This document shows, one piece after another, positions 1-57,837 of a stretch of DNA of 64,000 bases. Under the pieces are notes generated by a model, which saw only the letters and a program-made list of their open reading frames with translations, searched no databases and was not told where the DNA came from. Position numbers and translations under genes: made by a program. Origin of the DNA: Eledone cirrhosa (Eukaryota); contig OZ024743.1 in the NCBI GenBank assembly GCA_964016885.1, positions 100,068,001-100,132,000 of the forward strand, read 5' to 3'. Numbering within the stretch: the stretch's first letter is position 1; each line of letters begins with the position of its first letter.

Positions 1-1530
1 CAGGTAGACTGACAGGTAGATAGACAGGTAGACTGACAGGTAGACTGACAGGTAGACTGACAGGTAGACTGACAGGTAGACTGACAGGTAGACTGACAGG
101 TAGACTGACAGGTAGATAGACAGTTAGACTGACAGATAGACTGACAGGTAGACTGACAGGTAGATAGACAGGTAGACTGACAGGTAGACTGACAGGTAGA
201 TAGACAGGTAGACTGACAGGTAGACTGACAGGTAGATAGACAGGTAGACTGACAGGTAGACTGACAGGTAGACTGACAGGTAGACTGACAGGTAGACTGA
301 CAGATAGACTGACAGGTAGACTGACAGGTAGACTGACAGGTAGACTGACAGGTAGATAGACAGGTAGACTGACAGGTAGACTGACAGGTAGACTGACAGG
401 TAGACTGACAGGTAGACTGACAGGTAGATAGACAGGTAGACTGACAGGTAGACTGACAGGTAGACTGACAGGTAGACTGACAGGTAGACTGACAGGTAGA
501 CTGACAGGTAGACTGACAGGTAGATAGACAGGTAGACTGACAGGTAGACTGACAGGTAGATAGACAGTTAGACTGACAGATAGACTGACAGGTAGACTGA
601 CAGGTAGATAGACAGATAGACTGACAGGTAGACTGACAGGTAGACTGACAGGTAGACTGACAGGTAGACTGACAGGTAGACTGACAGGTAGACTGACAGG
701 TAGACTGACAGGTAGACTGTCAGGTAGACTGACAGGTAGACTGACAGGTAGACTGACAGGTAGATAGACAGGTAGACTGACAGATAGACTGACAGGTAGA
801 CTGACAGGTAGATAGACAGTTAGACTGACAGATAGACTGACAGGTAGACTGACAGGTAGATAGACAGGTAGACTGACAGGTAGACTGACAGGTAGATAGA
901 CAGGTAGACTGACAGGTAGACTGACAGGTAGACTGACAGGTAGACTGACAGGTAGACTGACAGGTAGACTGACAGATAGACTGACAGGTAGACTGACAGG
1001 TAGACTGACAGGTAGACTGACAGGTAGATAGACAGGTAGACTGACAGGTAGACTGACAGGTAGACTGACAGGTAGACTGACAGGTAGACTGACAGGTAGA
1101 CTAACAGGTAGACTGACAGGTAGACTGACAGGTAGACTGACAGATAGACTGACAGGTAGACTGACAGGTAGACTGACAGGTAGACTGACAGGTAGATAGA
1201 CAGGTAGACTGACAGGTAGACTGACAGGTAGACTGACAGGTAGACTGACAGGTAGATAGACAGGTAGACTGACAGGTAGACTGACAGGTAGACTGACAGG
1301 TAGATAGACAGTTAGACTGACAGATAGACTGACAGGTAGACTGACAGGTAGACTGACAGGTAGACTGACAGGTAGATAGACAGGTAGACTGACAGGTAGA
1401 CTGACAGGTAGACTGACAGGTAGACTGACAGGTAGACTGACAGGTAGACTGACAGGTAGATTGACAGGTAGACTGACAGGTAGACTGACAGGTAGATAGA
1501 CAGTTAGACTGACAGATAGACTGACAGGTA
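1..1530. repeat. 12-bp satellite (CAGGTAGACTGA)n, block 1 (runs off window start)
   Basis: Direct tandem array with recurrent variants CAGGTAGATAGA, CAGTTAGACTGA and CAGATAGACTGA; unit is built from GACA/GGTA/GACT tetramers. Confidence 0.99.
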
Positions 1531-1712
1531 TAGAAACATTCTATATACACATCATACCTTTTTATCTCTAAATGTATCTAGACAGTTCATAGGAGGAAGT
1601 TAATTATATAAACAGTGAAGAATATTTATATAAAGATGTAGCTTTCTGTGTGTATATACTTAGTAGTATGTATTAATATATACAGTTATTGCAGCCTCGA
1701 CAGTAAGTGTGT

Positions 1713-3747
1713 GTAGACTGACAGGTAGACTGACAGGTAGACTGACAGGTAGACTGACAGGTAGACTGACAGGTAGACTGACAGGTAGACTGACAGTTAG
1801 ACTGACAGGTAGACTGACAGATAGACTGACAGGTAGACTGACAGGTAGACTGACAGGTAGACTGACAGGTAGATAGACAGTTAGACTGACAGATAGACTG
1901 ACAGGGAGACTGACAGGTAGATAGACAGTTAGACTGACAGGTAGACTGACAGGTAGACTGACAGGTAGATAGACAGTTAGACTGACAGGTAGACTGACAG
2001 GTAGATAGACAGGTAGACTGACATGTAGATAGACAGGTAGACTGACAGGTAGATAGACAGGTAGACTGACAGGTAGATAGACAGGTAGACTGACAGGTAG
2101 ACTGACAGGTAGACTGACAGGTAGACTGACAGGTAGACTGACAGGTAGATAGACAGTTAGACTGACAGGTAGACTGACAGGTAGATAGACAGGTAGACTG
2201 ACAGGTAGATAGACAGGTAGACTGACAGGTAGACTGACAGGTAGATAGACAGTTAGACTGACAGGTAGACTGACAGGTAGACTGACAGGTAGACTGACAG
2301 GTAGACTGATAGGTAGACTGACAGGTAGACTGACAGGTAGACTGACAGGTAGACTGACTGGTAGATAGACAGGTAGACTGACAGGTAGACTGACAGATAG
2401 ACTGACAGGTAGACTGACAGTTAGACTGACAGATAGACTGACAGGTAGACTGACAGGTAGACTGACAGGTAGACTGACAGGTAGACTGACAGGTAGACTG
2501 ACAGGTAGACTGACAGGTAGATAGACAGGTAGACTGACAGGTAGACTGACAGGTAGACTGACAGGTAGACTGACAGGGAGACTGACAGGTAGACTGACAG
2601 GTAGACTGACAGGTAGATAGACAGTTAGACTGACAGATAGACTGACAGGTAGACCGACAGGTAGATAGACAGGTAGACTGACAGGTAGACTGACAGGTAG
2701 ATAGACAGGTAGACTGACAGGTAGATAGACAGGTAGACTGACAGGTAGACTGACAGGTAGACTGACAGGTAGATAGACAGGTAGACTGACAGGTAGACTG
2801 ACAGGTAGACTGACAGGTAGACTGACAGGTAGATAGACAGGTAGACTGGCAGGTAGACTGACAGGTAGACTGACAGGTAGACTGACAGGTAGACTGACAG
2901 GTAAACTGACAGGTAGACTGACAGGTAGACTGACAGGTAGACTGACAGATAGACTGACAGGTAGACTGACAGGTAGACTGACAGGTAGACTGACAGGTAG
3001 ACTGACAGGTAGATAGACAGTTAGACTGACAGGTAGACTGACTGGTAGACTGACAGGTAGACTGACAGGTAGACTGACAGGTAGACTGACAGGTAGACTG
3101 ACAGGTAGACTGACAGATAGATAGACAGTTAGACTGACAGATAGACTGACAGGTAGACTGACAGGTAGACTGACAGGTAGACTGACAGGTAGATAGACAG
3201 GTAGACTGACAGGTAGACTGACAGGTAGACTGACAGGTAGACTGACAGGTAGACTGACAGGTAGACTGACAGGTAGATAGACAGGTAGATAGACAGGTAG
3301 ACTGACAGGTAGACTGACAGGTAGACTGACAGGTAGACTGACAGGTAGACTGACAGGTAGACTGACAGGTAGACTGACAGGTAGATAGACAGGTAGACTG
3401 ACAGGTAGACTGACAGGTAGATAGACAGGTAGACTGACAGGTAGACTGACAGGTAGACTGACAGGTAGACTGACAGGTAGACTGACAGGTAGACTGACAG
3501 GTAGATAGACAGGTAGACTGACAGGTAGACTGACAGGTAGACTGACAGATAGATAGACAGTTAGACTGACAGATAGACTGACAGGTAGACTGACAGGTAG
3601 ACTGACAGGTAGACTGACAGGTAGATAGACAGGTAGACTGACAGGTAGACTGACAGGTAGACTGACAGGTAGACTGACAGGTAGACTGACAGGTAGACTG
3701 ACAGGTAGATAGACAGGTAGACTGACAGGTAGACTGACAGGTAGATA
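1713..3747. repeat. 12-bp satellite, block 2
   Basis: Same unit, after a 182-bp unique spacer; ends at ...CAGGTAGATA against a LINE 3' end. Confidence 0.99.
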
Positions 3748-5278
3748 AATTTCTATTTATTTGCCACGAGGGCACAAAAGAAGGGGACATTTACACAGTG
3801 GGGGAGTTTACATAAATCGAGTAAAGAAAAAAGGAATAACAATAATAATATAACAATAAAAAGTCCTCAAAAGGGAGGGGGCGTGTTGGGGATTGCACAT
3901 ACCCCCGAAAAGTGTGCAACTCTTTTCGCGGGGGAAGCCCAGAGAGGAGGCGCTCCCCCTTTCCTCTTCACTTCTTCACCTACAGAACAATGTAGAGAGA
4001 AGGCCCATTTACACGGGCCATTCTCGCTTCTTTCACCCACCTTTCATAAAACTGTCTGGGACCAAGCACTTCTCTCTCCATCCTGATTCTTCTTCCGAAG
4101 TGGTATCGGAAGAAGTAAACCAGGTGATGGCCGGAGAGAAAGTCACCCGACCTCAGACCTTTCAGGCGCGTCCACCACACAACCTCTTTCATCATGGCTA
4201 TTACGCACAGAAAGACCGCCTCTGCTTCATTTCTGAAGGGAGGAGGCGGCTTGATGTTCACCACAGACTCGGCGGTTAATCGAATCGGCGCCACACGCGA
4301 CAGCAGTCGTTCGACGTAGCCCCACAGATCGGCAACGCCCGGGCAGTGTACCAGTGCATGCGCAACGGTTTCCTCGTCGCGCACGCATCTGGGACAGATC
4401 TTTTTCGCGGGATCCCTGCCCGGGCGCCCGTGTCTGTAGAGCTTTTCTCGAACGGGCAGAGCCCCCCGGTAACACTGCCAGGCTAGGGACCTCTGGAAGT
4501 TGTCCATGGGTCCCGGGCCGAAAGTTCTACCGAACAGGCTGGCCAGTTCGTCCTCCTCCATGCCTAGCGACTCTCCAAGGGTGTCGTCGCCCCTGCTAGC
4601 CACCAACCCTCTATAGAATGTCGAGGTGGATTCTCCACTGACAGTCGGGTCCGCTTGCCCGATAGCCGTGAGCGCCTGGGCACACTCAGTGTGCCAGTTG
4701 CCCAGTTTTCTCGGTCTTTGCTTCACCCAGGATTGCAGTTCGGTGAGCGAGACGAGCTGTGGGAAGGCTCGCCTCACAAACGGGGCCCACACCGGCTGAC
4801 CGTTGAGGAATACCTGTAGATGCCGTAGCCTCAATGCGTGCCTACGCATCAACAGCCACGGCATACCCAGCCCTCCTTTCGAAGGGTGCTGGCAGCAGAT
4901 GGATCTCCTCACCATGGGAGGCCGCTTCTTCCAGAGGAACTGGAAGAGCATGCGTTCCATGATGGTGAGCTTTTCCTTGGGGCAAGGCACGACGGTCAGG
5001 CGGTAGTAGATGACGGACGCTATGTAAGCGTTCGTCACCTCCGCCCGACCTTTCAGTGATAGTTTGCACTTGGCCCACTTCTGGGTCAGCGCAAACACCC
5101 TGCTCGTCACCTCGCCCCAATTCTTCTCCACCTGGAGGTCCGGTCCGAACCAGACCCCGAGCAGCTTCACCGGGCCCTCCGTCCACCGCCCGACGACACC
5201 GTCTAACGGCATCGGTTTGCCCCTCCACGTTCCGAGTTGCAAACCGACTGACTTGTCCTGGTTCAGCTTAGCCCCCGG
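3748..5278 (-). mobile_element. 5'-truncated Tx1/L1-group non-LTR retrotransposon (copy a)
   Basis: ORF2 C-terminus (GPVKLLGVWFG; CPRC..EETVAHALVHC); 3' UTR ends AATAAATAGAAATT; GACTGACAGGTAGATA on both sides (3732-3747, 5279-5294). Confidence 0.93.
3980..5278 (-). pseudogene. Partial ORF2 of copy a (RT thumb region to C-terminal Zn motif), uninterrupted
   Basis: 420-aa ORF homologous to ORFs at 5688-8015 and 48165-51461. Confidence 0.9.
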
Positions 5279-5422
5279 GACTGACAGGTAGATAGACAGG
5301 TAGACTGACAGGTAGACTGACAGGTAGACTGACAGGTGGACTGACAGGTAGACTGACAGGTAGACTGACAGGTAGATAGACAGGTAGACTGACAGGTAGA
5401 CTGACAGGTAGACTGACAGATA
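5279..5422. repeat. 12-bp satellite, short block between the two LINEs
   Basis: About 12 units of CAGGTAGACTGA and variants. Confidence 0.98.
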
Positions 5423-8017
5423 AGTTTCTTTTATTTGCCACTAGGGCATCAAAAGTGGGACAAGTACAAAGGGGGGAGTTTACACAAAAAGGCGTCCTCA
5501 ATAAGGAGGAGGCAATAACAAAATATAAAAATAAAATAAGATATAACAAAAAATAAAATTTTTAACAAAATCCTCAATAGAGAGGAGGCGCCTTGGGGGG
5601 TCGCACACACCCCCGAAAAAAAGTGTGCAACCCTTTTCCTCAGGAGCACAGAGAGGGGGTGCTCCCTCGTTCCTTCCTCTTTTCCACCTACAGGCTTATG
5701 TAAAGAGAAGGCCCATTCACACGGGCCATTCTCGCCACTTTCACCCACCTTTCATAAAAACGACTGGGGTGCAGCACCTCTCTCTCCATCCTGATCCTTC
5801 TTCCGAAATGATATCGGAAGAAACGGACCAGTTGTTGGCCAGAGAGAAAGGCGCCCGACCTCAGTCCTTTCAGACGCGTCCACCATACAACCTCTTTCGC
5901 CATGGCTATTACGCACAGAAACACCGCCTCTGCTTCATCTTTGAAGGGGGGAGGCGGCTTGATCATTACAATAGACTCGGTGGTCAACCGGATCGGTCCC
6001 ACCCTTGACAGCAGTTGTTCGACATAGCCCCACAGATCGGCTACGCCCGAGCAGTGTACCAATGCGTGTGCAACGGTTTCCTCGTCGCACACGCATCTGG
6101 GACAGATCTTTTTGGCGGGGTCCCTACCCGGGCGCCCGTGTCTGTAGAGCCTTTCTCGAACGGGTAAAGCCCCTCGGTAGCACTGCCAGGCCAGGGACTT
6201 CTGGAAGTTGTCCATAGGTCCCGGGCTGAATGTCCTACCGAACAGGCTGGCCAGTTCGTCCTCCTCCATGTCTAGGGCTTCTCCGAGGGCGTCGTCGCAC
6301 CTGCTGCGTACCAGCCCTCTATAGAATGTTGCGGTGGAGTCTCCACTGATAACCGGATCCGCCTGCCAGAGGGCGGTGAGCGCCTGGGTACACTCAGTGT
6401 GCCAGGCGCCCAGTTTTCTCGGTCTCTGCTTGACCCAGGATTGCAGTTCGGTGAGTGAGACGAGTCTGGGAAAGGTTCGTCTCACAAACGGGGCCCACAC
6501 CGGTTGTCCGGTGAGGAATACGTAGAGGTGCCGTAGCCTTAATGCGTGTTTACGCATCATTAGCCACGGCATCCCCAGCCCTCCTTTCGAAGGGTGTTGA
6601 CAGCAGATGGATCTCCTCACCATAGGAGCCCGCCCCTTCCAAAGGAATTGGAAGAGCGCGCGCTCCATCTTGGTGAGGGTTTCCCTTGGGCAGGGCACTA
6701 CGGTCAGGCGGTAGTAGATGACGGACGCTATATAAGTGTTCGCCACCTCCGCCCGACCTTTCAGGGATAGTTTGCAACTGGCCCACTTCTGGGTCAGTGC
6801 AAACACCCTGTTCGTAACCTCCGCCCAGTTTTTCTCCACCTGGAGGTCCGGTCCGAACCAGACCCCGAGCAACTTCACCGGGCCCTCCGTCCAGCGTCCG
6901 ACGACGCCATCGGAGGGCATCGGTCTGCCCCTCCACGTGCCGAGTTGCAAACCGATCGACTTGTCCCGGTTCAGCTTAGCCCCTGTGAACTTTTCGTACT
7001 CCTCCAGTAAGGTGCCGACCGCCTCGATTTCGGAGGCCGTCGAGACCATTACTGTCACGTCATCGGCGTAGGCCGACACCGCTTTCCGCAATCCCGGTTC
7101 CAAAGGGATGCCCTGCAACAACTCCAACTTCCGCAGTAGTGGCTCGAGAGTCAACACATACAGAAGGGAGGAGAGAGGGCACCCTTGTCGGATGGACCGC
7201 GCGATTTTGAACGGCTCCGAGAGGTAGCCGTTCACCTTGACCCTAGAGCAGATGCGGCTGCTGTGCATAGCAGTGATCCAGCCCCTGAAAACGGGTCCGA
7301 AGCCTGCCGCCGCTAGCACCGCATCCAGGTAACCATGGTCGACCCTATCGAACGCCTTAGATTGATCCAAGTTGATCAGAGCCCCACCAAAGCCGGGTTC
7401 GTTCCCAACCCTCTCTATGATGTATCGCATGAGGTGGAGGTTGTCATGGATGGACCTGGACGGGATAGCGCATGTCTGCGCATCTCCCACCAGGTTGCCC
7501 ACGACAAGCGCCAACCTCTTTGCTAGCACCTTGGCCAAAATCTGTAACTCTGTATTTAGCAGAGTTATGGGCCTGAAGTTACTTATTTCGTCCCCCTTGT
7601 TCTCGTCCTTCCTCACTAGCGTGACTACGCCCTTGGTCACAGTACAGGGAATTCTCCCGTTCTGTTGCCAGTTGCAGTAGACCGCCTCGAGGAGATCGGG
7701 GAACAAGTCCGGCATAGCTAGATATAATTCGTAAGGAAGACCATCGAGACCCGGGGATTTGCGTTTGCCGCATTGGCCCAGCACGTCCTCTATCTCAGCG
7801 GCCGAAATCGGCTCCTCGCAAGACTTCGCCTCCCTGTCCGAGAGGCGCGGCAGGCCGTCGAGGTATGGACCGAAGTCCACGTTTCCAACCGGCTCCCCGC
7901 CCCTCCCGAACAGTCGGGCAAAGTGCCTTTGAAAGGCCTCACACATCTGCTTAGGCTCAAGAATCGCCCGTCCATCCAGGTCTCGCAAAGACCGGATGGT
8001 GGATTTAGTTCCACTGT
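5423..8017 (-). mobile_element. 5'-truncated Tx1/L1-group non-LTR retrotransposon (copy b)
   Basis: RT motifs KSPGLDG, FRPITLLN, LDQSKAFDRV, RQGCPLS, YADD; C-terminal CPRC..H..C; 3' end AATAAAAGAAACT; TAGACTGACAGATA on both sides (5409-5422, 8018-8031). Confidence 0.95.
5688..8015 (-). pseudogene. Partial ORF2 of copy b (complete RT domain, no endonuclease), uninterrupted
   Basis: C-terminal ~775 aa of the 1752-aa ORF; no stops or frameshifts. Confidence 0.92.
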
Positions 8018-10878
8018 TAGACTGACAGATAGACTGACAGGTAGACTGACAGGTAGACTGACAGGTAGACTGACAGGTAGACTGACAGGTAGACTGACAG
8101 GTAGACTGACAGGTAGACTGACAGGTAGACTGACAGGTAGATAGACAGTTAGACTGACAGATAGACTGACAGGGAGACTGACAGGTAGACTGACAGGTAG
8201 ACTGACAGGTAGACTGACAGGTAGACTGACAGGTAGACTGACAGATAGACTGACAGGTAGACTGACAGGTAGACTGACAGGTAGACTGACAGGTAGACTG
8301 ACAGGTAGACTGACAGATAGACTGACAGGTAGACTGACAGGTAGACTGACAGTTAGACTGACAGGTAGACTGACAGGTAGATAGACAGGTAGACTGACAG
8401 ATAGACTGACAGGTAGACTGACAGGTAGACTGACAGGTAGACTGACAGGTAGATAGACAGTTAGACTGACAGATAGACTGACAGGGAGACTGACAGGTAG
8501 ACTGACAGGTAGACTGACAGGTAGATAGACAGGTAGACTGACAGGTAGACTGACAGGTAGACTGACAGGTAGACTGACAGGTAGACTGACAGGTAGACTG
8601 ACAGGTAGACTGACAGTTAGACTGACAGGTAGACTGACAGGTAGATAGACAGTTAGACTGACAGGTAGACTGACAGGTAGATAGACAGGTAGACTGACAG
8701 GTAGATAGACAGGTAGACTGACAGGTAGACTGACAGGTAGATAGACAGTTAGACTGACAGGTAGACTGACAGGTAGACTGACAGGTAGACTGACAGGTAG
8801 ACTGATAGGTAGACTGACAGGTAGACTGACAGGTAGACTGACAGGTAGACTGACTGGTAGATAGACAGGTAGACTGACAGGTAGACTGACAGATAGACTG
8901 ACAGGTAGACTGACAGTTAGACTGACAGATAGACTGACAGGTAGACTGACAGGTAGACTGACAGGTAGACTGACAGGTAGACTGACAGGTAGACTGACAG
9001 GTAGACTGACAGGTAGACTGACAGGTAGATAGACAGGTAGACTGACAGGTAGACTGACAGGTAGATAGACAGGTAGACTGACAGGTAGACTGACAGGTAG
9101 ACTGACAGGTAGACTGACAGGTAGATAGACAGTTAGACTGACAGGTAGACTGACAGGTAGACTGACAGGTAGACTGACAGGTAGACTGACAGGTAGACTG
9201 ACAGATAGACTGACAGGTAGACTGACAGGTAGACTGACAGGTAGACTGACAGGTAGACTGACAGGTAGACTGACAGGTAGACTGACAGGTAGATAGACAG
9301 TTAGACTGACAGGTAGACTGACAGGTAGACTGACAGGTAGACTGACAGGTAGACTGACAGGTAGACTGACAGGTAGACTGACAGGTAGACTGACAGGTAG
9401 ATAGACAGTTAGACTGACAGGTAGACTGACAGGTAGACTGACAGGTAGACTGACAGGTAGACTGACAGGTAGACTGACAGGTAGACTGACAGGTAGATAG
9501 ACAGTTAGACTGAAAGGTAGACTGACTGGTAGACTGACAGGTAGACTGACAGGTAGACTGACAGGTAGACTGACAGGTAGAGTGACAGGTAGACTGACAG
9601 GTAGACTGACAGGTAGATAGACAGTTAGACTGACAGGTAGACTGACTGGTAGACTGACAGGTAGACTGACAGGTAGACTGACAGGTAGACTGACAGATAG
9701 ACTGACAGGTAGACTGACAGGTAGACTGACAGGTAGACTGACAGGTAGACTGACAGGTAGACTGACTGGTAGATAGACAGGTAGACTGACAGGTAGACTG
9801 ACAGGTAGACTGACAGGTAGACTGACAGGTAGATAGACAGGTAGACTGACAGGTAGACTGACAGTTAGACTGACAGATAGACTGACAGGTAGACTGACAG
9901 GTAGACTGACAGGTAGACTGACAGGTAGACTGACAGTTAGACTGACAGATAGACTGACAGGTAGACTGACAGGTAGACTGACAGGTAGACTGACAGTTAG
10001 ACTGACAGATAGACTGACAGGTAGACTGACAGGTAGACTGACAGGTAGACTGACAGGTAGACTGACAGGTAGACTGACAGGTAGACTGACAGTTAGACTG
10101 ACAGTTAGACTGACAGGTAGACTGACAGGTAGACTGACAGGTAGACTGACAGTTAGACTGACAGATAGACTGACAGGTAGACTGACAGGTAGACTGACAG
10201 GTAGACTGACAGGTAGACTGACAGGTAGACTGACAGGTAGACTGACAGGTAGACTGACAGGTAGACTGACTGGTAGATAGACAGGTAGACTGACAGGTAG
10301 ATAGACAGGTAGACTGACAGATAGACTGACAGGTAGACTGACAGGTAGATAGACAGGTAGACTGACAGGTAGATAGACAGGTAGACTGACAGATAGACTG
10401 ACAGGTAGACTGACTGGTAGATAGACAGGTAGACTGACAGGTAGATAGACAGGTAGACTGACAGATAGACTGACAGGTAGACTGACAGGTAGATAGACAG
10501 GTAGACTGACAGGTAGACTGACAGGTAGACTGACAGGTAGACTGACAGGTAGACTGACAGGTAGACTGACTGGTAGATAGACAGGTAGACTGACAGGTAG
10601 ATAGACAGGTAGACTGACAGATAGACTGACAGGTAGACTGACAGGTAGATAGACAGGTAGACTGACAGGTAGATAGACAGGTAGACTGACAGATAGACTG
10701 ACAGGTAGACTGACTGGTAGATAGACAGGTAGACTGACAGGTAGATAGACAGGTAGACTGACAGATAGACTGACAGGTAGACTGACAGGTAGATAGACAG
10801 GTAGACTGACAGGTAGACTGACAGGTAGACTGACAGGTAGACTGACAGGTAGACTGACAGGTAGACTGACAGGTAGAT
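8018..10878. repeat. 12-bp satellite, block 4
   Basis: Same unit; decays into GATAGATGGATA at the right end. Confidence 0.99.
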
Positions 10879-11285: not shown

Positions 11286-14200
11286 CCTTCACTACACCTC
11301 TCAGTCTACACCACCCCCTTCACTACACCTCTCAGTCTACACCACCCCCTTCACTGCACCTCTCAGTCTACACCACCCCCTTCACTACACCTCTCAGTCT
11401 ACACCACCCCCTTCACTACACCTCTCAGTCTACACCACACCCTTCACTACACCACTCAGACTACACCACCCCCTTCACTACACCTCTCAGTCTACACCAC
11501 ACCCTTCACTACACCACTCAGACTACACCACCCCCTTCACTACACCTCTCAGTCTACACTACCCCCTTCACTACACCACTCAGTCTACACTACCCCTTCA
11601 CTACACCACTCAGTCTACACTACCCCTTCACTACACCTCTCAGTCTACACCACCCCCTTCACTACACCTCTCAGACTACACCACCCCTTCACTACACCTC
11701 TCAGTCTACACCACCCCCTTCACTACACCTCTCAGTCTACACCACACCCTTCACTACACCTCTCAGTCTACACCACACCCTTCACTACACCACTCAGACT
11801 ACACCACCCCCTTCACTACACCTCTCAGTCTACACCACCCTCTTCACTACACCTCTCAGTCTACACCACCCCCTTCACTACACCTCTCAGTCTACACCAC
11901 ACCCTTCACTACACCACTCAGACTACACCACCCCCTTCACTACACCCCTCAGTCTACACCACCCCCTTCACTACACCTCTCAGTCTACACCACCCCTTTC
12001 ACTACACCTCTCAGTCTACACCACCCCCTTCACTACACCTCTCAGTCTACACCACCCCCTTCACTACACCTCTCAGTCTACACCACACCCTTCACTACAC
12101 CACTCAGACTACACCACCCCCTTCACTACACCTCTCAGTCTACGCCACCCCCTTCACTACACCTCTCAGTCTACACCACCCCCTTCACTACACCTCTCAG
12201 TCTACACCACCCCCTTCACTACACCTCTCAGTCTACACCACCCCCTTCACTACACCTCTCAGTCTACACCACCCCCTTCACTACACCTCTCAGTCTACAC
12301 CACACCCTTCACTACACCACTCACACTACACCACCCCCTTCACTACACCTCTCAGTCTACACCACCCCCTTCACTACACCTCTCAGTCTACACCACACCC
12401 TTCACTACACCACTCAGACTACACCACCCCCCTTCACTACACCTCTCAGTCTACACCACCACCTTCACTACACCTCTCAGTCTACACCACCCCCTTCACT
12501 ACACCTCTCAGTCTACACCACCCCCTTCACTACACCTCTCAGTCTACACCACCCCCTTCACTACACCTCTCAGTCTACACCACCCCCTTCACTACACCTC
12601 TCAGTCTACACCACACCCTTCACTACACCACTCAGACTACACCACCCCTTCACTACACCTCTCAGTCTACACCACCCCCTTCAATACACCTCCCAGTCTA
12701 CACGACCCCCTTCACTACACCTCTCAGTCTACACCACCCCCTTCACTACACCACTCAGTCTACACCACCCCCTTCACTACACCTCTCAGTCTACACCACC
12801 CCCTTCACTACACCTCTCAGTCTACACAACACCCTTCACTACACCACTCAGACTACACCACACCCTTCACTACACCTCTCAGACTAGACCACCCCCTTCA
12901 CTACACCTCTCAGTCTACACCACCCCCTTCACTACACCTCTCAGACTACACCACCCCTTCACTACACCTCTCAGTCTACACCACCCCCTTCACTACACCT
13001 CTCAGTCTACACCACCCCCTTCACTACACCTCTCAGACTACACCACCCCTTCACTACACCACTCAGTCTACACCACCCCTTCACTACACCTCTCAGTCTA
13101 CACCACCCCCTTCACTACACCTCTCAGACTACACCACCCCTTCACTGCACCTCTCAATCTACACCACCCCCTTCACTACACCTCTCAGTCTACACCACAC
13201 CCTTCACTACACCACTCAGACTACACCACCCCCTTCACTAGACCTCTCAGTCTACACCACCCCCTTCACTAGACCTCTCAGTCTACACCACACCCTTCAC
13301 TAGACCTCTCAGTCTACACCACCCCCTTCACTAGACCTCTCAGTCTACACCACACCCTTCACTACACCTCTCAGTCTACACCACCCCCTTCACTACACCT
13401 CTCAGTCTACACCACCCCTTCACTACACCTCTCAGTCTACACCACCCCCTTCACTACACCTCTCAGTCTACACCACCCCCTTCACTACACCTCTCAGTCT
13501 ACACCACACCCTTCACTGCACCACTCAGTCGACACCACCCCCTTCACTAGACCTCTCAGTCTACACCACACCCTTCACTACACCTCTCAGACTACACCAC
13601 CCCCTTCACTAGACCTCTCAGTCTACACCACCCCCTTCACTACACCACTCAGACTACGCCACCCCCTTCACTACACCTCTCAGTCTACACCACACCCTTC
13701 ACTACACCACTCACACTACACCACCCCCTTCACTACACCTCTCATTCTACACCACCCCCTTCACTACACCTCTCAGTCTACACCACCCCCTTCACTACAC
13801 CTCTCAGTCTACACCACACCCTTCACTACACCACTCAGACTACACCACCCCCTTCACTACACCCCTCAGTCTACACCACCCCTTCACTACACCTCTCAGT
13901 CTACACCACCCCCTTCACTACACCTCTCAGTCTACACCACCCCCTTCACTACACCTCTCAGTCTACACCACCCCCTTCACTACACCTCTCAGTCTACACC
14001 ACACCCTTCACTACACCACTCAGACTACACCACCCCCTTCACTACACCTCTCAGTCTACACCAGCCCCTTCACTACACCTCTCAGTCTACACCACCCCCT
14101 TCACTACACCTCTCAGTCTACACCACCCCCTTCACTACACCTCTCAGTCTACACCACCCCCTTCACTACACCTCTCAGTCTACACCACCCCCTTCACTAC

Positions 14201-17200
14201 ACCTCTCAGTCTACACCACACCCTTCACTACACCACTCAGACTACACCACCCCCTTCACTACACCTCTCAGTCTACACCACCCCCTTCACTACACCTCTC
14301 AGTCTACACCACACCCTTCACTACACCACTCAGACTACACCACCCCCTTCACTACACCTCTCAGTCTACACCACCCCCTTCACTACACCTCTCAGTCTAC
14401 ACCACCCCCTTCACTACACCTCTCAGTCTACACCACCCCCTTCACTACACCTCTCAGTCTACACCACCCCCTTCACTACACCTCTCAGTCTACACCACCC
14501 CCTTCACTACACCTCTCAGTCTACACCACACCCTTCACTACACCACTCAGACTACACCACCCCCTTCACTACACCTCTCAGTCTAAACCAACCCCTTCAC
14601 TACACCTCTCAGTCTACACCACCCCCTTCAATACACCTCTCAGTCTACACCACCCCCTTCAATACACCTCTCAGTCTACACGACCCCCTTCACTACACCT
14701 CTCAGTCTACACCACCCCTTCACTACACCACTCAGTCTACACCACCCCCTTCACTACACCTCTCAGTCTACACCACCCCCTTCACTACACCTCTCAGTCT
14801 ACACCACACCCTTCACTACACCACTCAGACTACACCACACCCTTCACTACACCTCTCAGACTACACCACCCCCTTCACTACACCTCTCAGTCTACACCAC
14901 CCCCTTCACTACACCTCTCAGACTACACCATCCCTTCACTACACCTCTGTCTACACCACCCCCTTCACTACACCTCTCAGTCTACACCACCCCCTTCACT
15001 ACACCTCTCAGACTACACCACCCCTTCACTACACCACTCAGTCTACACCACCCCCTTCACTACACCTCTCAGTCTACACCACCCCCTTCACTACACCTCT
15101 CAGACTACACCACCCCTTCACTGCACCTCTCAGTCTACACCACCCCCTTCACTACACCTCTCAGTCTACACCACACCCTTCACTACACCACTCAGACTAC
15201 ACCACCCCCTTCACTAGACCTCTCAGTCTACACCACCCCCTTCACTAGACCTCTCAGTCTACACCACACCCTTCACTAGACCTCTCAGTCTACACCACCC
15301 CCTTCACTAGACCTCTCAGTCTACACCACACCCTTCATTACACCTCTCAGTCTACACCACCCCCTTCACTACACCTCTCAGTCTACACCACCCCTTCACT
15401 ACACCTTTCAGTCTACACCACACCCTTCACTACACCTCTCAGTCTACACCACCCCCTTCACTACACCTCTCAGTCTATACCACACCCTTCACTACACCAC
15501 TCAGTCGACACCACCCCCTTCACTAGACCTCTCAGTCTACACCACACCCTTCACTACACCTCTCAGACTACACCACCCCCTTCACTAGACCTCTCAGTCT
15601 ACACCACCCCCTTCACTACACCACTCAGACTACACCACCCCCTTCACTACACCTCTCAGTCTACACCACCCCCTTCACTACACCTCTCAGTCTACACCAC
15701 CCCCTTCACTACACCTCTCAGTCTACACCACACCCTTCACTACACCTCTCAGTCTACACCACCCCCTTCACTACACCTCTCAGACTACACCACCCCTTCA
15801 CTACACCTCTCAGTCTACACCACACCCTTCACTACACCACTCAGTCTACACCACCCCCTTCACTACACCTCTCAGTCTACACCACACCCTTCACTACACC
15901 ACTCAGTCTACACCACACCCTTCACTACACCACTCAGTCTACACCACCCCCTTCACTAGACCTCTCAGTCTACACCACACCCTTCACTACACCACTCAGT
16001 CTACACCACACACTTCACTACACCACTCAGACTACACCACCCCCTTCACTACACCTCTCAGTCTACACCACCCCCTTCACTACACCTCTCAGTCTACACC
16101 ACCCCCTTCACTACACCTCTCAGTCTACACCACCCCCTTCACTACACCTCTCAGTCTACACCACCCCCTTCACTACACCACTCAGACTACACCACCCCCT
16201 TCACTATACCTCTCAGTCTACACCACCCCCTTCACTACACCTCTCAGTCTACACCACACCCTTCACTACACCACTCAGACTACACCACCCCCTTCACTAC
16301 ACCTCTCAGTCTACACCACCCCCTTCACTACACCTCTCAGTCTACACCACCTCCTTCACTACACCTCTCAGTCTACACCACCCCCTTCACTACACCTCTC
16401 AGTCTACACCACCCCCTTCACTACACCTCTCAGTCTACACCACACCCTTCACTACACCTCTCAGTCTACACCACCCCCTTCACTACACCTCTCAGACTAC
16501 ACCACCCCTTCACTACACCTCTCAGTCTACACCACCCCCTTCACTACACCTCTCAGTCTACACCACACCCTTCACTACACCTCTCAGTCTACACCACCCC
16601 CTTCACTACACCTCTCAGTCTACACCACACCCTTCACTACACCTCTCAGTCTACCCCACCCCCTTCACTACACCTCTCAGACTACACCACCCCTTCACTA
16701 CACCTCTCAGTCTACACCACCCCCTTCACTACACCTCTCAGTCTACACCACCCCCTTCACTACACCTCTCAGTCTACACCACCCCCTTCACTACACCTCT
16801 CAGTCTACATCACCCCCTTCACTACACCTCTCAGTCTACACCACCCCCTTCACTACACCTCTCAGTCTACACCACCCCCTTCACTACACCTCTCAGTCTA
16901 CACCACCCCCTTCACTACACCTCTCAGACTACACCACCCCTTCACTACACCACTCAGTCTACACCACCCCCTTCACTAGACCTCTCAGTCTACACCACAC
17001 CCTTCACTACACCACTCAGTCTACACCACACCCTTCACTACACCTCTCAGTCTACACCACACCCTTCACTACACCACTCAGACTACACCACCCCCTTCAC
17101 TACACCTCTCAGTCTACACCACCCACTTCACTACACCTCTCAGTCTACACCACCCCCTTAAATACACCTCTCAGTCTACACGACCCCCTTCACTACACCT

Positions 17201-20200
17201 CTCAGTCTACACCACCCCCTTCACTACACCACTCAGTCTACACCACCCCCTTCACTACACCTCTCAGTCTACACCACACCCTTCACTACACCTCTCAGTC
17301 TACACCACACCCTTCACTACACCACTCAGACTACACCACACCCTTCACTACACCTCTCAGACTACACCACCCCCTTCACTACACCTCTCAGACTACACCA
17401 CCCCTTCACTGCACCTCTCAGTCTACACCACCCCCTTCACCACACCTCTCAGTCTACACCACACCCTTCACTACACCACTCAGACTACACCACCCCCTTC
17501 ACTACACCTCTCAGTCTACACCACCCCCTTCACTACACCTCTCAGTCTACACCACCCCCTTCACGACACCTCTCAGTCTACACCACACCCTTCACTACAC
17601 CTCTCAGTCTACACCACCCCCTTCACTACACCTCTCAGACTACACCACCCTTTCACTACACCTCTCAGTCTACACCACACCCTTCACTACACCACTCAGT
17701 CTAAACCACCCCCTTCACTACACCTCTCAGTCTACACCACACCCTTCACTACACCACTCAGTCTACACCACCCCCTTCACTACACCTCTCAGTCTACACC
17801 ACACCCTTCACTACACCACTCAGTCTACACCACCCCCTTCACTAGACCTCTCAGTCTACACCACACCCTTCACTACACCACTCAGTCTACACCACACCCT
17901 TCACTACACCACTCAGTCTACACCACCCCCTTCACTACACCTCTAAGTCTACACCACACCCTTCACTACACCACTCAGTCTACACCACCCCCTTCACTAG
18001 ACCTCTCTGTCTACACCACACCCTTCACTACACCACTCAGTCTACACCACCCCCTTCACTACACCTCTCAGTCTACACCACACCCTTCACTACACCACTC
18101 AGTCTACACCACACCCTTCACTAGACCTCTCAGTCTACACCACACCCTTCACTACACCTCTCAGTCTACACCACACCCTTCACTACACCACTCAGACTAC
18201 ACCACCCCCTTCACTACACCTCTCAGTCTACACCACCCCCTTCACTACACCTCTCAGTCTACACCACCCCCTTCAATACACCTCTCAGTCTACACGACCC
18301 CCTTCACTACACCTCTCAGTCTACACCACCCCCTTCACTACACCACTCAGTCTACACCACCCCCTTCACTACACCTCTCAGTCTACACCACCCCCTTCAC
18401 TACACCTCTCAGTCTACACCACACCCTTCACTACACCACTCAGACTACACCACACCCTTCACTACACCTCTCAGTCTACACCACCCCCTTCACTACACCT
18501 CTCAGACTACACCACCCCTTCACTACACCTCTCAGTCTACACCACCCCCTTCACTACACCTCTCAGTCTACACCACCCCCTTCACTACACCTCTCAGACT
18601 ACACCACCCCTTCACTACACCACTCAGTCTACACCACCCCCTTCACTACACCTCTCAGTCTACACCACCCCCTTCACTACACCTCTCAGACTACACCACC
18701 CCTTCACTGCACCTCTCAGTCTACACCACCCCCTTCACTACACCTCTCAGTCTACACCACACCCTTCACTACACCACTCAGACTACACCACCCTCTTCAC
18801 TAGACATCTCAGTCTACACCACCCCCTTCACTAGACCTCTCAGTCTACACCACACCCTTCACTAGACCTCTCAGTCTACACCACCCCCTTCACTAGACCT
18901 CTCAGTCTACACCACACCCTTCACTACACCTCTCAGTCTACACCACCCCCTTCACTACACCTCTCAGTCTACACCACCCCTTCACTACACCTCTCAGTCT
19001 ACACCACCCCCTTCACTACACCTCTCAGTCTACACCACCCCCTTCACTACACCTCTCAGTCTACACCACACCCTTCACTACACCACTCAGTCGACACCAC
19101 CCCCTTCACTAGACCTCTCAGTCTACACCACACCCTTCACTACACCTCTCAGACTACACCACCCCCTTCACTAGACCTCTCAGTCTACACCACCCCCTTC
19201 ACTACACCACTCAGACTACACCACCCCCTTCACTACACCTCTCAGTCTACACCACACCCTTCACTACACCACTCAGACTACACCACCCCCTTCACTACAC
19301 CTCTCATTCTACACCACCCCCTTCACTACACCTCTCAGTCTACACCACCCCCTTCACTACACCTCTCAGTCTACACCACACCCTTCACTACACCACTCAG
19401 ACTACACCACCCCCTTCACTACACCCCTCAGTCTACACCACCCCCTTCACTACACCTCTCAGTCTACACCACCCCCTTCACTACACCTCTCAGTCTACAC
19501 CACCCCCTTCACTACACCTCTCAGTCTACACCACCCCCTTCACTACACCTCTCAGTCTACACCACACCCTTCACTACACCACTCAGACTACACCACCCCC
19601 TTCACTACACCTCTCAGTCTACACCACCCCCTTCACTACACCTCTCAGTCTACACCACCCCCTTCACTACACCTCTCAGTCTACACCACCCCCTTCACTA
19701 CACCTCTCAGTCTACACCACCCCCTTCACTACACCTCTCAGTCTACACCACCCCCTTCACTACACCTCTCAGTCTACACCACACCCTTCACTACACCACT
19801 CAGACTACACCACCCCCTTCACTACACCTCTCAGTCTACACCACCCCCTTCACTACACCTCTCAGTCTACACCACACCCTTCACTACACCACTCAGACTA
19901 CACCACCCCCTTCACTACACCTCTCAGTCTACACCACCCCCTTCACTACACCTCTCAGTCTACACCACCCCCTTCACTACACCTCTCAGTCTACACCACC
20001 CCCTTCACTACACCTCTCAGTCTACACCACCCCCTTCACTACACCTCTCAGTCTACACCACCCCCTTCACTACACCTCTCAGTCTACACCACACCCTTCA
20101 CTACACCACTCAGACTACACCACCCCCTTCACTACACCTCTCAGTCTACACCAACCCCTTCACTACACCTCTCAGTCTACACCACCCCCTTCAATACACC

Positions 20201-23200
20201 TCTCATTCTACACCACCCCCTTCAATACACCTCTCAGTCTACACGACCCCCTTCACTACACCTCTCAGTCTACACCACCCCCTTCACTACACCACTCAGT
20301 CTACACCACCCCCTTCACTACACCTCTCAGTCTACACCACCCCCTTCACTACACCTCTCAGTCTACACCACACCCTTCACTACACCACTCAGACTACACC
20401 ACACCCTTCACTACACCTCTCAGACTACACCACCCCCTTCACTACACCTCTCAGACTACACCACCCCTTCACTACACCTCTCAGTCTACACCACTCCCTT
20501 CACTACACCTCTCAGTCTACACCACCCCCTTCACTACACCTCTCAGACTACACCACCCCTTCACTACACCACTCAGTCTACACCACCCCCTTCACTACAC
20601 CTCTCAGTCTACACCACCCCCTTCACTACACCTCTCAGACTACACCACCCCTTCACTGCACCTCTCAGTCTACACCACCCCTTCACTACACCTCTCAGTC
20701 TACACCACACCCTTCACTACACCACTCAGACTACACCACCCCCTTCACTAGACCTCTCAGTCTACACCACCCCCTTCACTAGACCTCTCAGTCTACACCA
20801 CACCCTTCACTAGACCTCTCAGTCTACACCACCCCCTTCACTAGACCTCTCAGTCTACACCACACCCTTCACTACACCTCTCTGTCTACACCACCCCCTT
20901 CACTACACCTCTCAGTCTACACCACCCCTTCACTACACCTCTCAGTCTACACCACCCCCTTCACTACACCTCTCAGTCTACACCACCCCCTTCACTACAC
21001 CTCTCAGTCTACACCAAACCCTTCACTACACCACTCAGTCGACACCACCCCCTTCACTAGACCTCTCAGTCTACACCACACCCTTCACTACACCTCTCAG
21101 ACTACACCACCCCCTTCACTAGACCTCTCAGTCTACACCACCCCCTTCACTACACCACTCAGACTACACCACCCCCTTCACTACACCTCTCAGTCTACAC
21201 CACCCCCTTCACTACACCTCTCAGTCTACACCACCCCCTTCATTACACCTCTCAGTCTACACCACACCCTTCACTACACCTCTCAGTCTACACCACCCCC
21301 TTCACTACACCTCTCAGACTACACCACCCCTTCACTACACCTCTCAGTCTACACCACACCCTTCACTACACCACTCAGTCTACACCACCCCCTTCACTAC
21401 ACCTCTCAGTCTACACCACCCCCTTCACTACACCTCTCAGTCTACACCACCCCCTTCACTACACCTCTCAGTCTACACCACACCCTTTACTACACCACTC
21501 AGTCTACACCACCCCCTTCACTAGACCTCTCAGTCTACACCACACCCTTCACTACACCACTCAGTCTACACCACACCCTTCACTACACCACTCAGTCTAC
21601 ACCACCCCCTTCACTACACCTCTCAGTCTACACCACACCCTTCACTACACCACTCAGTCTACACCACCCCCTTCACTAGACCTCTCAGTCTACACCACAC
21701 CCTTCACTACACCTCTCAGTCTACACCACACCCTTCACTACACCACTCAGACTACACCACCCCCTTCACTACACCTCTCAGTCTACACCACCCCCTTCAC
21801 TACACCTCTCAGTCTACACCACACCCTTCACTACACCACTCAGACTACACCACCCCCTTCACTACACCTCTCAGTCTACACCACCCCCTTCACTACACCT
21901 CTCAGTCTACACCACCCCCTTCACTACACCTCTCAGTCTACACCACCCCCTTCACTACACCTCTCAGTCTACACCACACCCTTCACTACACCACTCAGAC
22001 TACACCACCCCCTTCACTACACCTCTCAGTCTACACCAACCCCTTCACTACACCTCTCAGTCTACACCACCCCCTTCAATACACCTCTCATTCTACACCA
22101 CCCCCTTCAATACACCTCTCAGTCTACACGACCCCCTTCACTACACCTCTCAGTCTACACCACCCCCTTCACTACACCACTCAGTCTACACCACCCCCTT
22201 CACTACACCTCTCAGTCTACACCACCCCCTTCACTACACCTCTCAGTCTACACCACACCCTTCACTACACCACTCAGACTACACCACACCCTTCACTACA
22301 CCTCTCAGACTACACCACCCCCTTCACTACACCTCTCAGACTACACCACCCCTTCACTACACCTCTCAGTCTACACCACTCCCTTCACTACACCTCTCAG
22401 TCTACACCACCCCCTTCACTACACCTCTCAGACTACACCACCCCTTCACTACACCACTCAGTCTACACCACCCCCTTCACTACACCTCTCAGTCTACACC
22501 ACCCCCTTCACTACACCTCTCAGACTACACCACCCCTTCACTGCACCTCTCAGTCTACACCACCCCTTCACTACACCTCTCAGTCTACACCACACCCTTC
22601 ACTACACCACTCAGACTACACCACCCCCTTCACTAGACCTCTCAGTCTACACCACCCCCTTCACTAGACCTCTCAGTCTACACCACACCCTTCACTAGAC
22701 CTCTCAGTCTACACCACCCCCTTCACTAGACCTCTCAGTCTACACCACACCCTTCACTACACCTCTCTGTCTACACCACCCCCTTCACTACACCTCTCAG
22801 TCTACACCACCCCTTCACTACACCTCTCAGTCTACACCACCCCCTTCACTACACCTCTCAGTCTACACCACCCCCTTCACTACACCTCTCAGTCTACACC
22901 AAACCCTTCACTACACCACTCAGTCGACACCACCCCCTTCACTAGACCTCTCAGTCTACACCACACCCTTCACTACACCTCTCAGACTACACCACCCCCT
23001 TCACTAGACCTCTCAGTCTACACCACCCCCTTCACTACACCACTCAGACTACACCACCCCCTTCACTACACCTCTCAGTCTACACCACCCCCTTCACTAC
23101 ACCTCTCAGTCTACACCACCCCCTTCATTACACCTCTCAGTCTACACCACACCCTTCACTACACCTCTCAGTCTACACCACCCCCTTCACTACACCTCTC

Positions 23201-23787
23201 AGACTACACCACCCCTTCACTACACCTCTCAGTCTACACCACACCCTTCACTACACCACTCAGTCTACACCACCCCCTTCACTACACCTCTCAGTCTACA
23301 CCACCCCCTTCACTACACCTCTCAGTCTACACCACCCCCTTCACTACACCTCTCAGTCTACACCACACCCTTTACTACACCACTCAGTCTACACCACCCC
23401 CTTCACTAGACCTCTCAGTCTACACCACACCCTTCACTACACCACTCAGTCTACACCACACCCTTCACTACACCACTCAGTCTACACCACCCCCTTCACT
23501 ACACCTCTCAGTCTACACCACACCCTTCACTACACCACTCAGTCTACACCACCCCCTTCACTAGACCTCTCAGTCTACACCACACCCTTCACTACACCAC
23601 TCAGTCTACACCACCCCCTTCACTACACCTCTCAGTCTACACCACACCCTTCACTACACCACTCAGTCTACACCACCCCCTTCACTAGACCTCTCTGTCT
23701 ACACCACACCCTTCACTACACCACTCAGTCTACACCACACCCTTCACTACACCACTCAGTCTACACCACACCCTTCACTACACCACT
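11286..23787. repeat. 31-bp satellite (CACTACACCTCTCAGTCTACACCACCCCCTT)n, about 400 units
   Basis: Direct tandem array; internal CTACACC dimer; strong C/G strand skew; occasional 30-bp units. Confidence 0.99.
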
Positions 23788-43255: not shown

Positions 43256-43278
43256 CTGTTGTATCATGTGTTTAACAC

Positions 43279-43452
43279 TACTCTATATTTACTATTGTAT
43301 TTTCATGGTAAAGGCTTTACCTCACATAACATTCACATTACTCTATATATACTATTGTATTTTCATGGTAAAGGCTTTATCTCACATAACATTCACATTA
43401 CTCTATATATACTATTGTATTTTCATGGTAAAGGCTTTATCTCACATAACAT
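43279..43452. repeat. 60-bp tandem repeat (about 2.9 copies) of the MITE family 2 subterminal region
   Basis: Exact 60-bp period; unit matches about 40570-40625. Confidence 0.92.

Positions 43453-47755: not shown

Positions 47756-47805
<50 letters not shown>
47756..47805. repeat. (AAT)n at the Tx1 3' junction
   Basis: Seen directly. Confidence 0.98.
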
Positions 47806-47807
<2 letters not shown>

Positions 47808-48164
47808 TTTCTTTATTAACCACAAGGGTTTACATAAAGTAGACATTAAGGACAGTGCAGGACAATACAGTACGGTACAAATGGGCATTTCTGCGTGTAA
47901 AAAACAAAAACAGAGGATGTAACAAAAAAATAACAATGAAAAATTCCCCAATAGGGGGGAGACTTCGGAGGGACATTTGTGGAGAAAGCCCAGTAAAAGG
48001 CCACAGTGACCCTGACCACCAAGGCAAGTGCCCTCTCCCAGTTTTCCACCTTTAATTTACAGATATATACTCAGAGTAGGCCCATTCACTCGGGCCATTC
48101 TTGCTTCTCTCACCCATCTTTCAACAAAATGGTGGGAAGAGAGCACTTCCCTCTCTACTCTGAT

Positions 48165-51100: not shown

Positions 51101-51461
51101 CAGGCCGCCCTGCTCCTGTCGGGGCATAGACGGCCACTAGCCTGAAAGCTTGCCCGTCTCCGCTGGTCACGTCCAGCACCACCAGCTTACCCTCTGGGTC
51201 CAGGAAGATGGCCCGTATGGCGAGATCCAAACCTCTCCGAAAAAGCACAGCAACTCCGCCCCCCGATCCAGGACGGCTGGGAGATGCGTACACATCGTAG
51301 TCGCCGAAGATCGGTGCGAAGGCCCGTGCTTCGGAGATTCTGGTCTCGCTGATGGCCACTACATCTATGTTTAGTGACCTGAGGTCGTTGAGCAGGTGAC
51401 CCTGCTTCCATGAGGACCCCAAGCCACACGCATTTATGCTGCCTATTCTGAGTGAGGTCAT
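48165..51461 (-). CDS. ORF2: APE endonuclease plus reverse transcriptase; late premature stop, 6-aa deletion in the Zn motif
   Basis: SINACGL, ISET, GDWN, YLDR and TDH (APE); LDQSKAFDRV, RQGCPLS and YADD (RT). Confidence 0.93.
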   Translation of the reverse strand: MTSLRIGSINACGLGSSWKQGHLLNDLRSLNIDVVAISETRISEARAFAPIFGDYDVYASPSRPGSGGGVAVLFRRGLDLAIRAIFLDPEGKLVVLDVTSGDGQAFRLVAVYAPTGAGRPDFFRRLETFLGTSRSLVLVGDWNGILDARWDCVGLADRGGGCKSLTNLLRRFELSDRYRLDFPNVPMWTWTNRVGSSRSYLDRVFCREIDRSSIGCPQFKIVSYTDHKFVICVLDLDRLHRRGPGYWKLNASLPARKAYRDRISELVKRALTGAIVNNKWWFALKRAIRIESIRFSKALAIEKNRAEGELVRKLDEGLSKGIATDVLTAKLALDQFFNAKHEGCVVRARVRALRHKGTKAVQWARVAEARRGNKATIRSLVDHDGRMLLDPGQMCEAFQRHFAQLFGGSGGPGRGMDFSVYLDGLPRLSATEAKCYEKPITAAEVREAMTGCTRGKSLGLDGLPYELYVQMPDLFGGLLADVYCNWQQNGRIPSSVSRGAVALLRKDPNKGDNIDNFRPITLLNTEFKILAKVLAKRLALVVGRLVGEAQTCAIPDRSIHDNLHLMRYIVERVAKEPGTSGSLINLDQSKAFDRVDHRYLAAVLRAAGFGPVFRGWIAAMHSDICSVVRVNGHLSEPFNIMCSVRQGCPLSSLLYVLTLEPLLHKLETLRGVPRELGCGRSVSAYADDVTVVVSNAKHIEAIGTTLREYEAVTGAMINQEKSVGLQLGTWRGRSMPSNSVVGRWTDGPVKLLGVWFGPDLQTDKNWDEVTSRVASLTQKWAERKLSLKGRAEVANAYIASVICYCLTVVPCPKPRLTALERLLFRFLWKGRAPMVRRSICCQHPLRGWLGMPWLMMCRHALRLRHLHLFLDGDQVWPPFARHVFPQLVSLTELQSWVKRRPRGSAWRRECLQALTALDQSGNVIGGNSTSAFYRGLVEGKSDDVLGETLGVDENQLANLFGRTFGPGPMDNFQKSLAWQCYQGALPVRDKLYRHGGAVSRTCPRCAVLHALVQCPKIADLWVYVEHLLSCLGRIRLSSESIVRIAPPSSFSREGQAVFICLVAMAKEIVWWTRLKGLKTSTYLFGDALIEFFKFHLKR

Positions 51462-51496
51462 GTTTAAAATAGAGTGGGAAAGATGGGAAAGACCAC

Positions 51497-52117
51497 TTAC
51501 CGTACTTTTCGTAGAGGAAGGATGGTTTCTCCATCCCTTTTCACTTGAACGTCTGGTGAAGGGACCGTTGAATCGTCCCTTCGGCTGGTCATCGGCTCTT
51601 CTATGAGTATGTCCGAATATACTCTCCGGTTGAGAGTCCCTCCTAGGTTTCTGAAATCACCAACAGCGTTGGGGAATTTCGTTTTAATGTTTGTGTATTG
51701 TTTCTGTGCTATTTTTAGCAGTCTTATGTTCGTTGGCGTTTTGATTGGTACTGGTATTATGTAGTCGTGCTGTGAAATGTCTGTATGTTCAATTATGTAA
51801 GTCATTAGTTTCTTGTTGTGTGTATTTATTGCCGTGCATTTGTTTTTCTGTGGCTGGAGTGTGGTTCAGCTATTTTCTTGTCGTTGTTGCTGGGTGTGTG
51901 TGTTTTTTTGTTGTGTTTGCGATGTTGGTGCTTGTGGTGGTGGTGTTGAAGGTGTTGTTGTTGTTGGCGGTGGGGTTGTCGCCGGTGGTGATGGTGGTGC
52001 TAGTGTGGGTGGTGATGGTATTGGTGGTGTTGCTGCTGTGAGTCTCTTTGCAGTACCCTTTACCCTTTTTTCATTTCTTTCCTCCCTTTTCGAAGGCGAC
52101 GATGCGCTGCTTCTGCG
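51497..52117 (-). pseudogene. ORF1 C-terminal part of copy c (frameshifted)
   Basis: Removing the LTR element and one TGCG restores ...VVRRHK-RRSSASSPSKR... in frame; ends just upstream of the ORF2 ATG. Confidence 0.8.
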
Positions 52118-52561: not shown

Positions 52562-52562
52562 C

Positions 52563-52575
52563 TGGTGACCGACGT
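52563..52575 (+). promoter_or_regulatory. Primer-binding site, tRNA-Trp-like
   Basis: TGGTGACCGACGT versus the tRNA-Trp complement TGGTGACCCCGACGT (2-nt gap). Confidence 0.7.
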
Positions 52576-57833: not shown

Positions 57834-57837
57834 TGCG

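Follow-up and report, generated by a model that had tools for sequence, protein, structure and literature searches.

Two truncated retrotransposon copies, here called a and b, lie close together in a 12-bp satellite of Eledone cirrhosa, within a 64,000-nucleotide stretch of assembly GCA_964016885.1 (contig OZ024743.1, positions 100,068,001 to 100,132,000 of the forward strand; hereafter the window). Our analysis, which extended to the 3.0-Gb genome, makes it very probable that these copies are 5'-truncated insertions of two young subfamilies, A and B, of an L1-group (likely Tx1-clade) long interspersed nuclear element (LINE) that joins its 3' end to TAT(C>A)T, mostly in (TATC)n, likely by means of a nick made by its apurinic/apyrimidinic (AP)-like endonuclease (EN) 3' of AGATA on the GATA strand. 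The family targets (TATC)n/(GATA)n microsatellites and is not specific to the satellite. Its usual host is a plain (TATC)n microsatellite, and the window locus is an ordinary product of a junction rule that the family follows throughout the genome.

The features of the locus, in window coordinates, are as follows.

1-10877, no strand: 12-bp minisatellite GACAGGTAGACT with GATA and GTTA variants, the host of copies a and b
3732-3747, minus strand: 3' target-site duplication copy of copy a, 16 bp, starting TATCT on the element strand
3748-5277, minus strand: copy a, a 1,530-bp 5'-truncated member of subfamily A, with the end of open reading frame (ORF) 2 running to 3980 and then a 3' untranslated region (UTR) ending GAAATT
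5279-5294, minus strand: 5' target-site duplication copy of copy a, 16 bp
5409-5422, minus strand: 3' target-site duplication copy of copy b, 13-14 bp, starting TATCT on the element strand
5423-8018, minus strand: copy b, a 2,596-bp 5'-truncated member of subfamily B, with reverse transcriptase (RT), zf-RVT, a stop at 5688 and a 3' UTR ending GAAACT
8018-8031, minus strand: 5' target-site duplication copy of copy b, its innermost base common to the element

A first-pass annotation, made from the sequence of the window, had described a and b as diverged LINEs in the same orientation, without poly(A) and with uninterrupted reading frames, and this description stands. The two share 87.3% of their aligned bases (1323/1515), lie on the minus strand with 144 bp of satellite between them, and retain ORF2 remnants, carrying RT and/or zf-RVT, that are each open to the stop; copy b has neither the EN nor ORF1. 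With a slash marking the junction, the 3' ends read GAAATT/TATCTACC for copy a and GAAACT/TATCTGTC for copy b, both joining TATCT as first reported. The duplicated sequences are GACTGACAGGTAGATA for copy a (3732-3747 and 5279-5294) and TAGACTGACAGATA for copy b (5409-5422 and 8018-8031). Comparison with full-length copies revealed one untemplated base at 5278 beside copy a and a last base of copy b's duplication that is shared with the element; the 16 bp originally proposed for a is retained, while the 14 bp proposed for b becomes 13-14 bp. Copy a is approximately 99.7% identical to hundreds of A copies and copy b approximately 99.3% to B copies; they are independent insertions from two different subfamilies, as had been supposed. 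Within the window, 6,751 bp of sequence bear the satellite, and AGATA is present there at 126 sites; these lie almost entirely on one strand (the plus strand has 2 TATCT), which puts the chance of both 3' ends falling on AGATA at about 3.5e-4.

The same junction is found across the genome. We counted exact-pattern matches consisting of the subfamily 3' end, one variable base and then the flank: TATCT was joined by 621 of 642 A ends (97%) and 909 of 1,117 B ends (81%), with a further 146 of the 1,117 B ends joining TATAT. A looser family-wide 3' end motif occurred 22,856 times, compared with 2 for its control, and preceded TATCT in 16,133 cases. In a background of 20 stretches of 10 kb (200 kb), TATAT was 10.7 times commoner than TATCT (11,334 vs 1,055), such that, per available site on this background, B prefers TATCT over TATAT by approximately 67-fold. 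The aligned letters of 99 flanks (30 A and 69 B) were T1 99, A2 99, T3 98, C4 85 or A4 14, and T5 98; none of these flanks started with TCTC or TTC, the targets of Kibi and Koshi. The first-pass annotation had claimed a TATCT/GATA specificity and had named heterogeneous flanks as the observation that would speak against it; the flanks are not heterogeneous, and the specificity is borne out. One published criterion for a target-specific Tx1 element is a single sequence type in >20% of flanks (PMC4494074), a level exceeded here by TATCT in both subfamilies and by runs of at least TATCTATCTAT, which follow 571 of the 1,117 B ends (51%). A family member was present within 250 bp downstream of 30 of 90 copies, in the same orientation in 30 of 30; the short distance and shared direction of a and b are thus usual for the family. 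One B copy (L292) has an A-rich tract at its end and lies inside a TAA repeat, unlike all others; it was possibly mobilised by the machinery of another element.

The 5' junctions show that the motif belongs to the target. The duplication test covered 90 B copies with 5' ends, 71 of them truncated (one duplicate dropped), and allowed a slack of -3 to +4. The start of the 3' flank was repeated over at least 8 bp at the 5' junction of 43 of the 71 truncated copies, as against 24% of 4,970 cross pairs; duplications that include non-repeat letters numbered 14, where 2.0 were expected from the same cross pairs. Duplications of 4-7 bp were seen in 6 of the 71 and none in 22. Informative duplications span 8-20 bp, with clear examples in unique sequence at L063 (16 bp), L275 (12 bp), L028 (11 bp), L022 (10 bp), the full-length copy L112 (11 bp) and the A copy L097 (20 bp). 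Site type agreed at both ends of all 37 classifiable copies (29 TATC-TATC, 8 TA-TA, 0 discordant; p=2.6e-8). For the 11 TA-site copies, a tree of 70 B copies requires 10 changes, the shuffled mean being 9.0, and TA-site and TATC-site copies share identical rows. Because the 5' junction mirrors the site type and the TA-site copies are unclustered on the tree, the motif is chosen at insertion; TATCT is a target motif and not a fixed tail, in agreement with the first proposal. The duplications also show that the base before TAT in the empty site is variable (C, A or T), and the junction is hence placed just before TAT. One TA-site copy (L279) has a 5' flank that forms a near-perfect palindrome centred on the TA run, which suggests fold-back during integration.

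Several observations weigh against this reading. No duplication of at least 8 bp was present in 28 of the 71 truncated copies, and for 34 of the 71 a site type could not be assigned to each of the two ends; several of these 5' ends are chimeric or rearranged. Pure-repeat duplications are weak singly, given that 24% of cross pairs match, and some of the 14 non-repeat cases owe their extra letters to the 4-base slack into the element. The B tree is star-like and poorly resolved (1 of 49 branches starred), and the background behind the per-site preference comprises 200 kb only. As regards the enzyme, Repanas et al. found that single loop substitutions left L1 nicking unchanged and that integration is also shaped by factors beyond the endonuclease (PMC1950540).

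The genome holds many near-identical copies of each of a and b. Full-length A elements measure approximately 5,705 bp (28 of 30 fetched A copies are full-length) and full-length B elements approximately 5,795 bp, with an ORF1 of some 625-635 amino acids and an ORF2 of 1,145 amino acids; both frames are intact in 18 of 38 full-length copies. The ORF2 of copy L114 contains Exo_endo_phos (33-227), RVT_1 (512-755) and zf-RVT (976-1032, below the Pfam cut-off), and alignment shows the EN catalytic motifs to be intact. A profile search matched human L1 ORF2p with an E value of 6e-112 (378 bits) and R2 with 9e-38 (133 bits). With its AP-like EN, its RT and its C-terminal zinc motif, closer to L1 than to R2, and with the 5' truncation (71 of 90 B copies) and duplications (43 of 71) described above, the family is an L1-group retrotransposon of the kind without long terminal repeats (non-LTR). 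Elements of the Tx1 clade have two ORFs, the first with a zinc knuckle. Membership of that clade is likely and is consistent with the family's anatomy; the zf-CCHC match in ORF1 is weak and below the cut-off (E 0.0035). Among named proteins, the nearest match belongs to the octopod Argonauta hians, at 67% over the RT region. Homologue searches returned no match named Tx1, and 7 of 7 homologues were unnamed in the cluster look-up, with unnamed RT clusters in the Atlas. Metagenome contigs searched for relatives with flanks gave distant matches only (best segments 23-43%), and no RNA run was listed for the query L088:362-6100, which spans upstream sequence and most of the element up to, but excluding, its 3' end.

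Two features of the coding regions may be mentioned here. In 6 of 6 subfamily A copies examined (L081, L088, L091, L101, L105, L106), ORF2 lacks an ATG ahead of the endonuclease and overlaps, in a different frame, the end of ORF1. The ORF2 of B and of the sister subfamilies C, D and E, by contrast, starts with Met; this suggests expression of A ORF2 by a non-AUG start or a frameshift. A variant termed B2 (L070, L073, L077, L078, L262, L264-L266, L276, L277) has an RT 99.4% identical to that of B, a different ORF1 and an EN 88% identical, and is apparently a recombinant that shares B's target.

We propose that the GATA strand is nicked immediately 3' of AGATA by the AP-like endonuclease, which would be the main determinant of the target. 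Reverse transcription would then be primed at the nick, target-primed reverse transcription being established for L1-group elements. An insertion leaves the motif repeated at its two sides; as the motif is also strand-asymmetric, a head-to-tail build-up of later copies in a single orientation would follow, and the a-b pair is a small case of it. Sister subfamilies keep the NNT(C/A)T register and differ in its first letters.

An alternative that we consider improbable is that the target is real but is selected for the most part once the nick has been made: a read-through RNA with a few target repeats at its 3' end would pair with the nicked primer, and a subfamily would thereby re-find its donor's repeat. 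TATC lies directly 5' of 28 of 28 full-length A copies in a fixed phase, and is longer there than at the copy's own 3' end in 18 of the 28, suggesting that repeats from the flank are carried along with the RNA or direct the 5' join. RNA-primer complementarity has been named as a possible extra targeting factor (PMC1950540), and B and B2 share their targets yet differ by 12% in the EN. However, TA-site B copies are scattered among TATC-site copies, identical rows included, and single TATCT or TATAT sites in unique sequence have been used with exact duplications (L063, L112, L022, L028, L275). Moreover, the EN diverges more than the RT between differently targeting subfamilies (76% vs 89% identity between B and C).

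It is much less probable that the element itself encodes the TATC repeats as a microsatellite tail and adds them wherever it inserts. Some RTE, L2 and CR1 elements carry such tails, and the 51% of B ends followed by at least TATCTATCTAT, like the 28 of 71 truncated copies without a clear duplication, could be read in this way. A tail would not explain why the motif recurs at the 5' junctions of truncated copies together with site-specific letters (14 vs 2 expected) or why TA-type 3' ends are paired with TA-type 5' ends in 8 of 8 classifiable copies. In addition, 36 of the 99 flanks hold at most one TATC unit, and repeat type is unclustered on the B copy tree. A fixed tail was rejected on the mirrored 5' junctions and the unclustered TA-site copies.

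The first-pass annotation had regarded the 12-bp satellite itself as the target, or as a safe haven to which the family is adapted. This claim is not upheld, and we regard it as very unlikely. Two insertions 144 bp apart at GATA variants do invite it, but the genome-wide rate predicts 0.64 insertions in the 631 local sites, and the excess of the two observed is not significant (P=0.14). Under the family-wide pattern, only 7 of 16,133 TATCT junctions resemble the satellite, a and b among them. For the most part the satellite is confined to this region: there are 408 exact matches to its TATCT variant, and 91 of the first 100 listed adjoin the window. It runs for approximately 30 kb upstream of the window (100,038,001-100,068,000), with an inverted segment of about 9 kb, and no further family copy was found in these 30 kb of adjoining satellite. 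Satellite-specific targeting was rejected on the junction count, the local distribution and the P value; the satellite is an incidental host, probably struck because TATCT is present in one strand of its minority variants. Directly after the 12-bp block, the window contains a 12.5-kb array of a 31-bp unit (11286-23784). That the a-b pair is an assembly or duplication artefact inside the satellite is least likely of all: tandem repeats are error-prone in assemblies, but a and b belong to different subfamilies, each has its own truncation point and duplication, and the junction rule recurs at thousands of dispersed loci.

Other members of the family have other targets. Of the first 100 family ends listed, 35 did not join TATCT, and among the 30 that were fetched a minisatellite site accounted for 11, ATT-type runs for 8, TATAT for 4 and TGTCT for 2, with 5 others. 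Subfamily E joins TGTCT (214 of 272 ends) and lineage D joins ATTAT (1,107 of 1,351). For subfamily C (334 ends), all 30 sampled copies join ACTCT within a 72-bp repeat, several of them in tandem arrays; these copies were viewed in 1.5-kb loci, beyond which their 5' ends fell, and on the 5' side the repeat stops at one fixed point in 8 of 8 examined. Approximately 11 of 18 short D copies show ATT runs at the 5' junction when judged by eye. T3 and T5 are common to the targets of all subfamilies. Identities to B in EN and RT, respectively, are 82% and 88% for A, 87% and 92% for E, 76% and 89% for C, and 59% and 75% for D. A quick protein tree, built without bootstrap from rows that include no named Tx1 or L1 sequence, groups A, B and E together, then C, with the D lineages and the Argonauta protein outside. 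At the tip of the hairpin loop, whose position was taken from an alignment to L1 EN, NNSG stands in 10 of 10 aligned E copies and NRSG in A, B and C; in this one subfamily the change correlates with the target. Four TATAT ends (L317, L321, L328, L332) come from further subfamilies, two of whose translated ENs have a distinct first loop; a TA-preferring lineage is possible.

Two of these target types are also represented in the window.

43275-43452, plus strand: element-free array of C's 60-72-bp target minisatellite
47806-59579, minus strand: D-like element of the (ATT)n-targeting lineage, with ORF2 at approximately 48060-51461, 67% identical to B

The D-like element is flanked by ATT runs (47756-47805 and 59580-59612) and has an open frame of 1,163 codons over ORF2; its ORF1 is split by an unrelated, LTR-like insertion of about 5.8 kb (approximately 52.0-57.85 kb), for which a direct-repeat seed occurs at 52118 and 57371. 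C's target minisatellite is contained in a dispersed element whose ends are similar to TTAACCCTTTAGCATT and TTTAAATGCTAAAG (window 43275-43452; L307-L337, L339-L368); we take this element to resemble a piggyBac-type miniature inverted-repeat transposable element (MITE).

These data lead us to a tentative hypothesis, which we hold to be somewhat less than an even chance: that an active Tx1-like radiation has partitioned tandem repeats (TATCT, TGTCT, ATTAT and the minisatellite site) through the first two letters of NNT(C/A)T, the switch being encoded by a handful of EN residues, for example Arg-to-Asn at the hairpin-loop tip and a first-loop Pro in the TGTCT subfamily. If true, nature would have supplied a near-isogenic set of elements from which the target code of APE endonucleases could be read. 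Subfamilies that number hundreds to thousands of near-identical copies and have intact frames and 87-92% RT identity can differ in target by no more than one base (TATCT vs TGTCT); domain and residue swaps would therefore be direct tests. With approximately 23,000 family 3' ends, the family also shapes the microsatellites of this genome and builds same-orientation arrays. The mechanism by which APE retrotransposons target microsatellites was called not well understood in a 2013 review (PMC3812793), and loop-graft work on L1 did not settle the extent to which integration specificity is set by the endonuclease (PMC1950540).

Literature searches found no Tx1 element that targets GATA or TATC, Repbase and Dfam entries being outside the comparison. 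Known Tx1 targets include Tx1D, U2, (TC)n, (TTC)n, (TTCC)n/(TTTC)n and transposons (PMC4494074); TATC and GATA have no occurrence in the text of that paper, whose Fig. 3 labels and supplements list more targets. Microsatellite targets of non-LTR retrotransposons comprise ACAY, AC, TC, TTC and TAA (PMC3812793), to which TG has been added (PMC4640811); the accessible portion of PMC8869645 holds no additional one. Octopus repeat papers count L1-Tx1 families, 13 of them recently active in O. vulgaris (PMC13282606, PMC8967140), and target data for these families were not found in the accessible portions of either paper. Tx1 is not mentioned in PMC9115989.

Among known systems, human LINE-1 ORF2p (PDB 8uw3 and others) has the same architecture of EN, RT and C-terminal zinc motif, but LINE-1 ends in a poly(A) tail and prefers TTTT/AA only loosely, whereas the family described here lacks poly(A) and its 5-base junction is tight. 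Waldo (ACAY), Mino (AC), Dong (TAA) and Togen (TG) are also microsatellite-specific non-LTR retrotransposons (PMC3812793, PMC4640811), and Dong shares its TAA/ATT target with lineage D. These elements belong to other clades (R1; R4 and NeSL-related) and use other repeats. Subfamily C has its counterparts in Tx1L of Xenopus, which inserts in the non-autonomous piggyBac family Tx1D, and in the crocodilian Tx1-Mar (PMC4494074); C, for its part, occupies a fixed position in a tandem repeat inside a dispersed MITE-like element. It differs in being 89% identical in the RT to a microsatellite-targeting sister in the same genome, and its host element is classified by its end motifs only. Kibi, Koshi and the crocodilian Tx1 families are also APE-type, L1-group elements specific to a microsatellite (PMC4494074, PMC3812793). 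Their targets are (TC)n, (TTC)n and (TTCC)n/(TTTC)n, while the target here, in an octopod host, is TATCT in (TATC)n, with TATAT second; the likeness described here is one of target type. By this analogy, the family works like Kibi and Koshi with another repeat, and what it adds to these systems is a series of close relatives with different targets.

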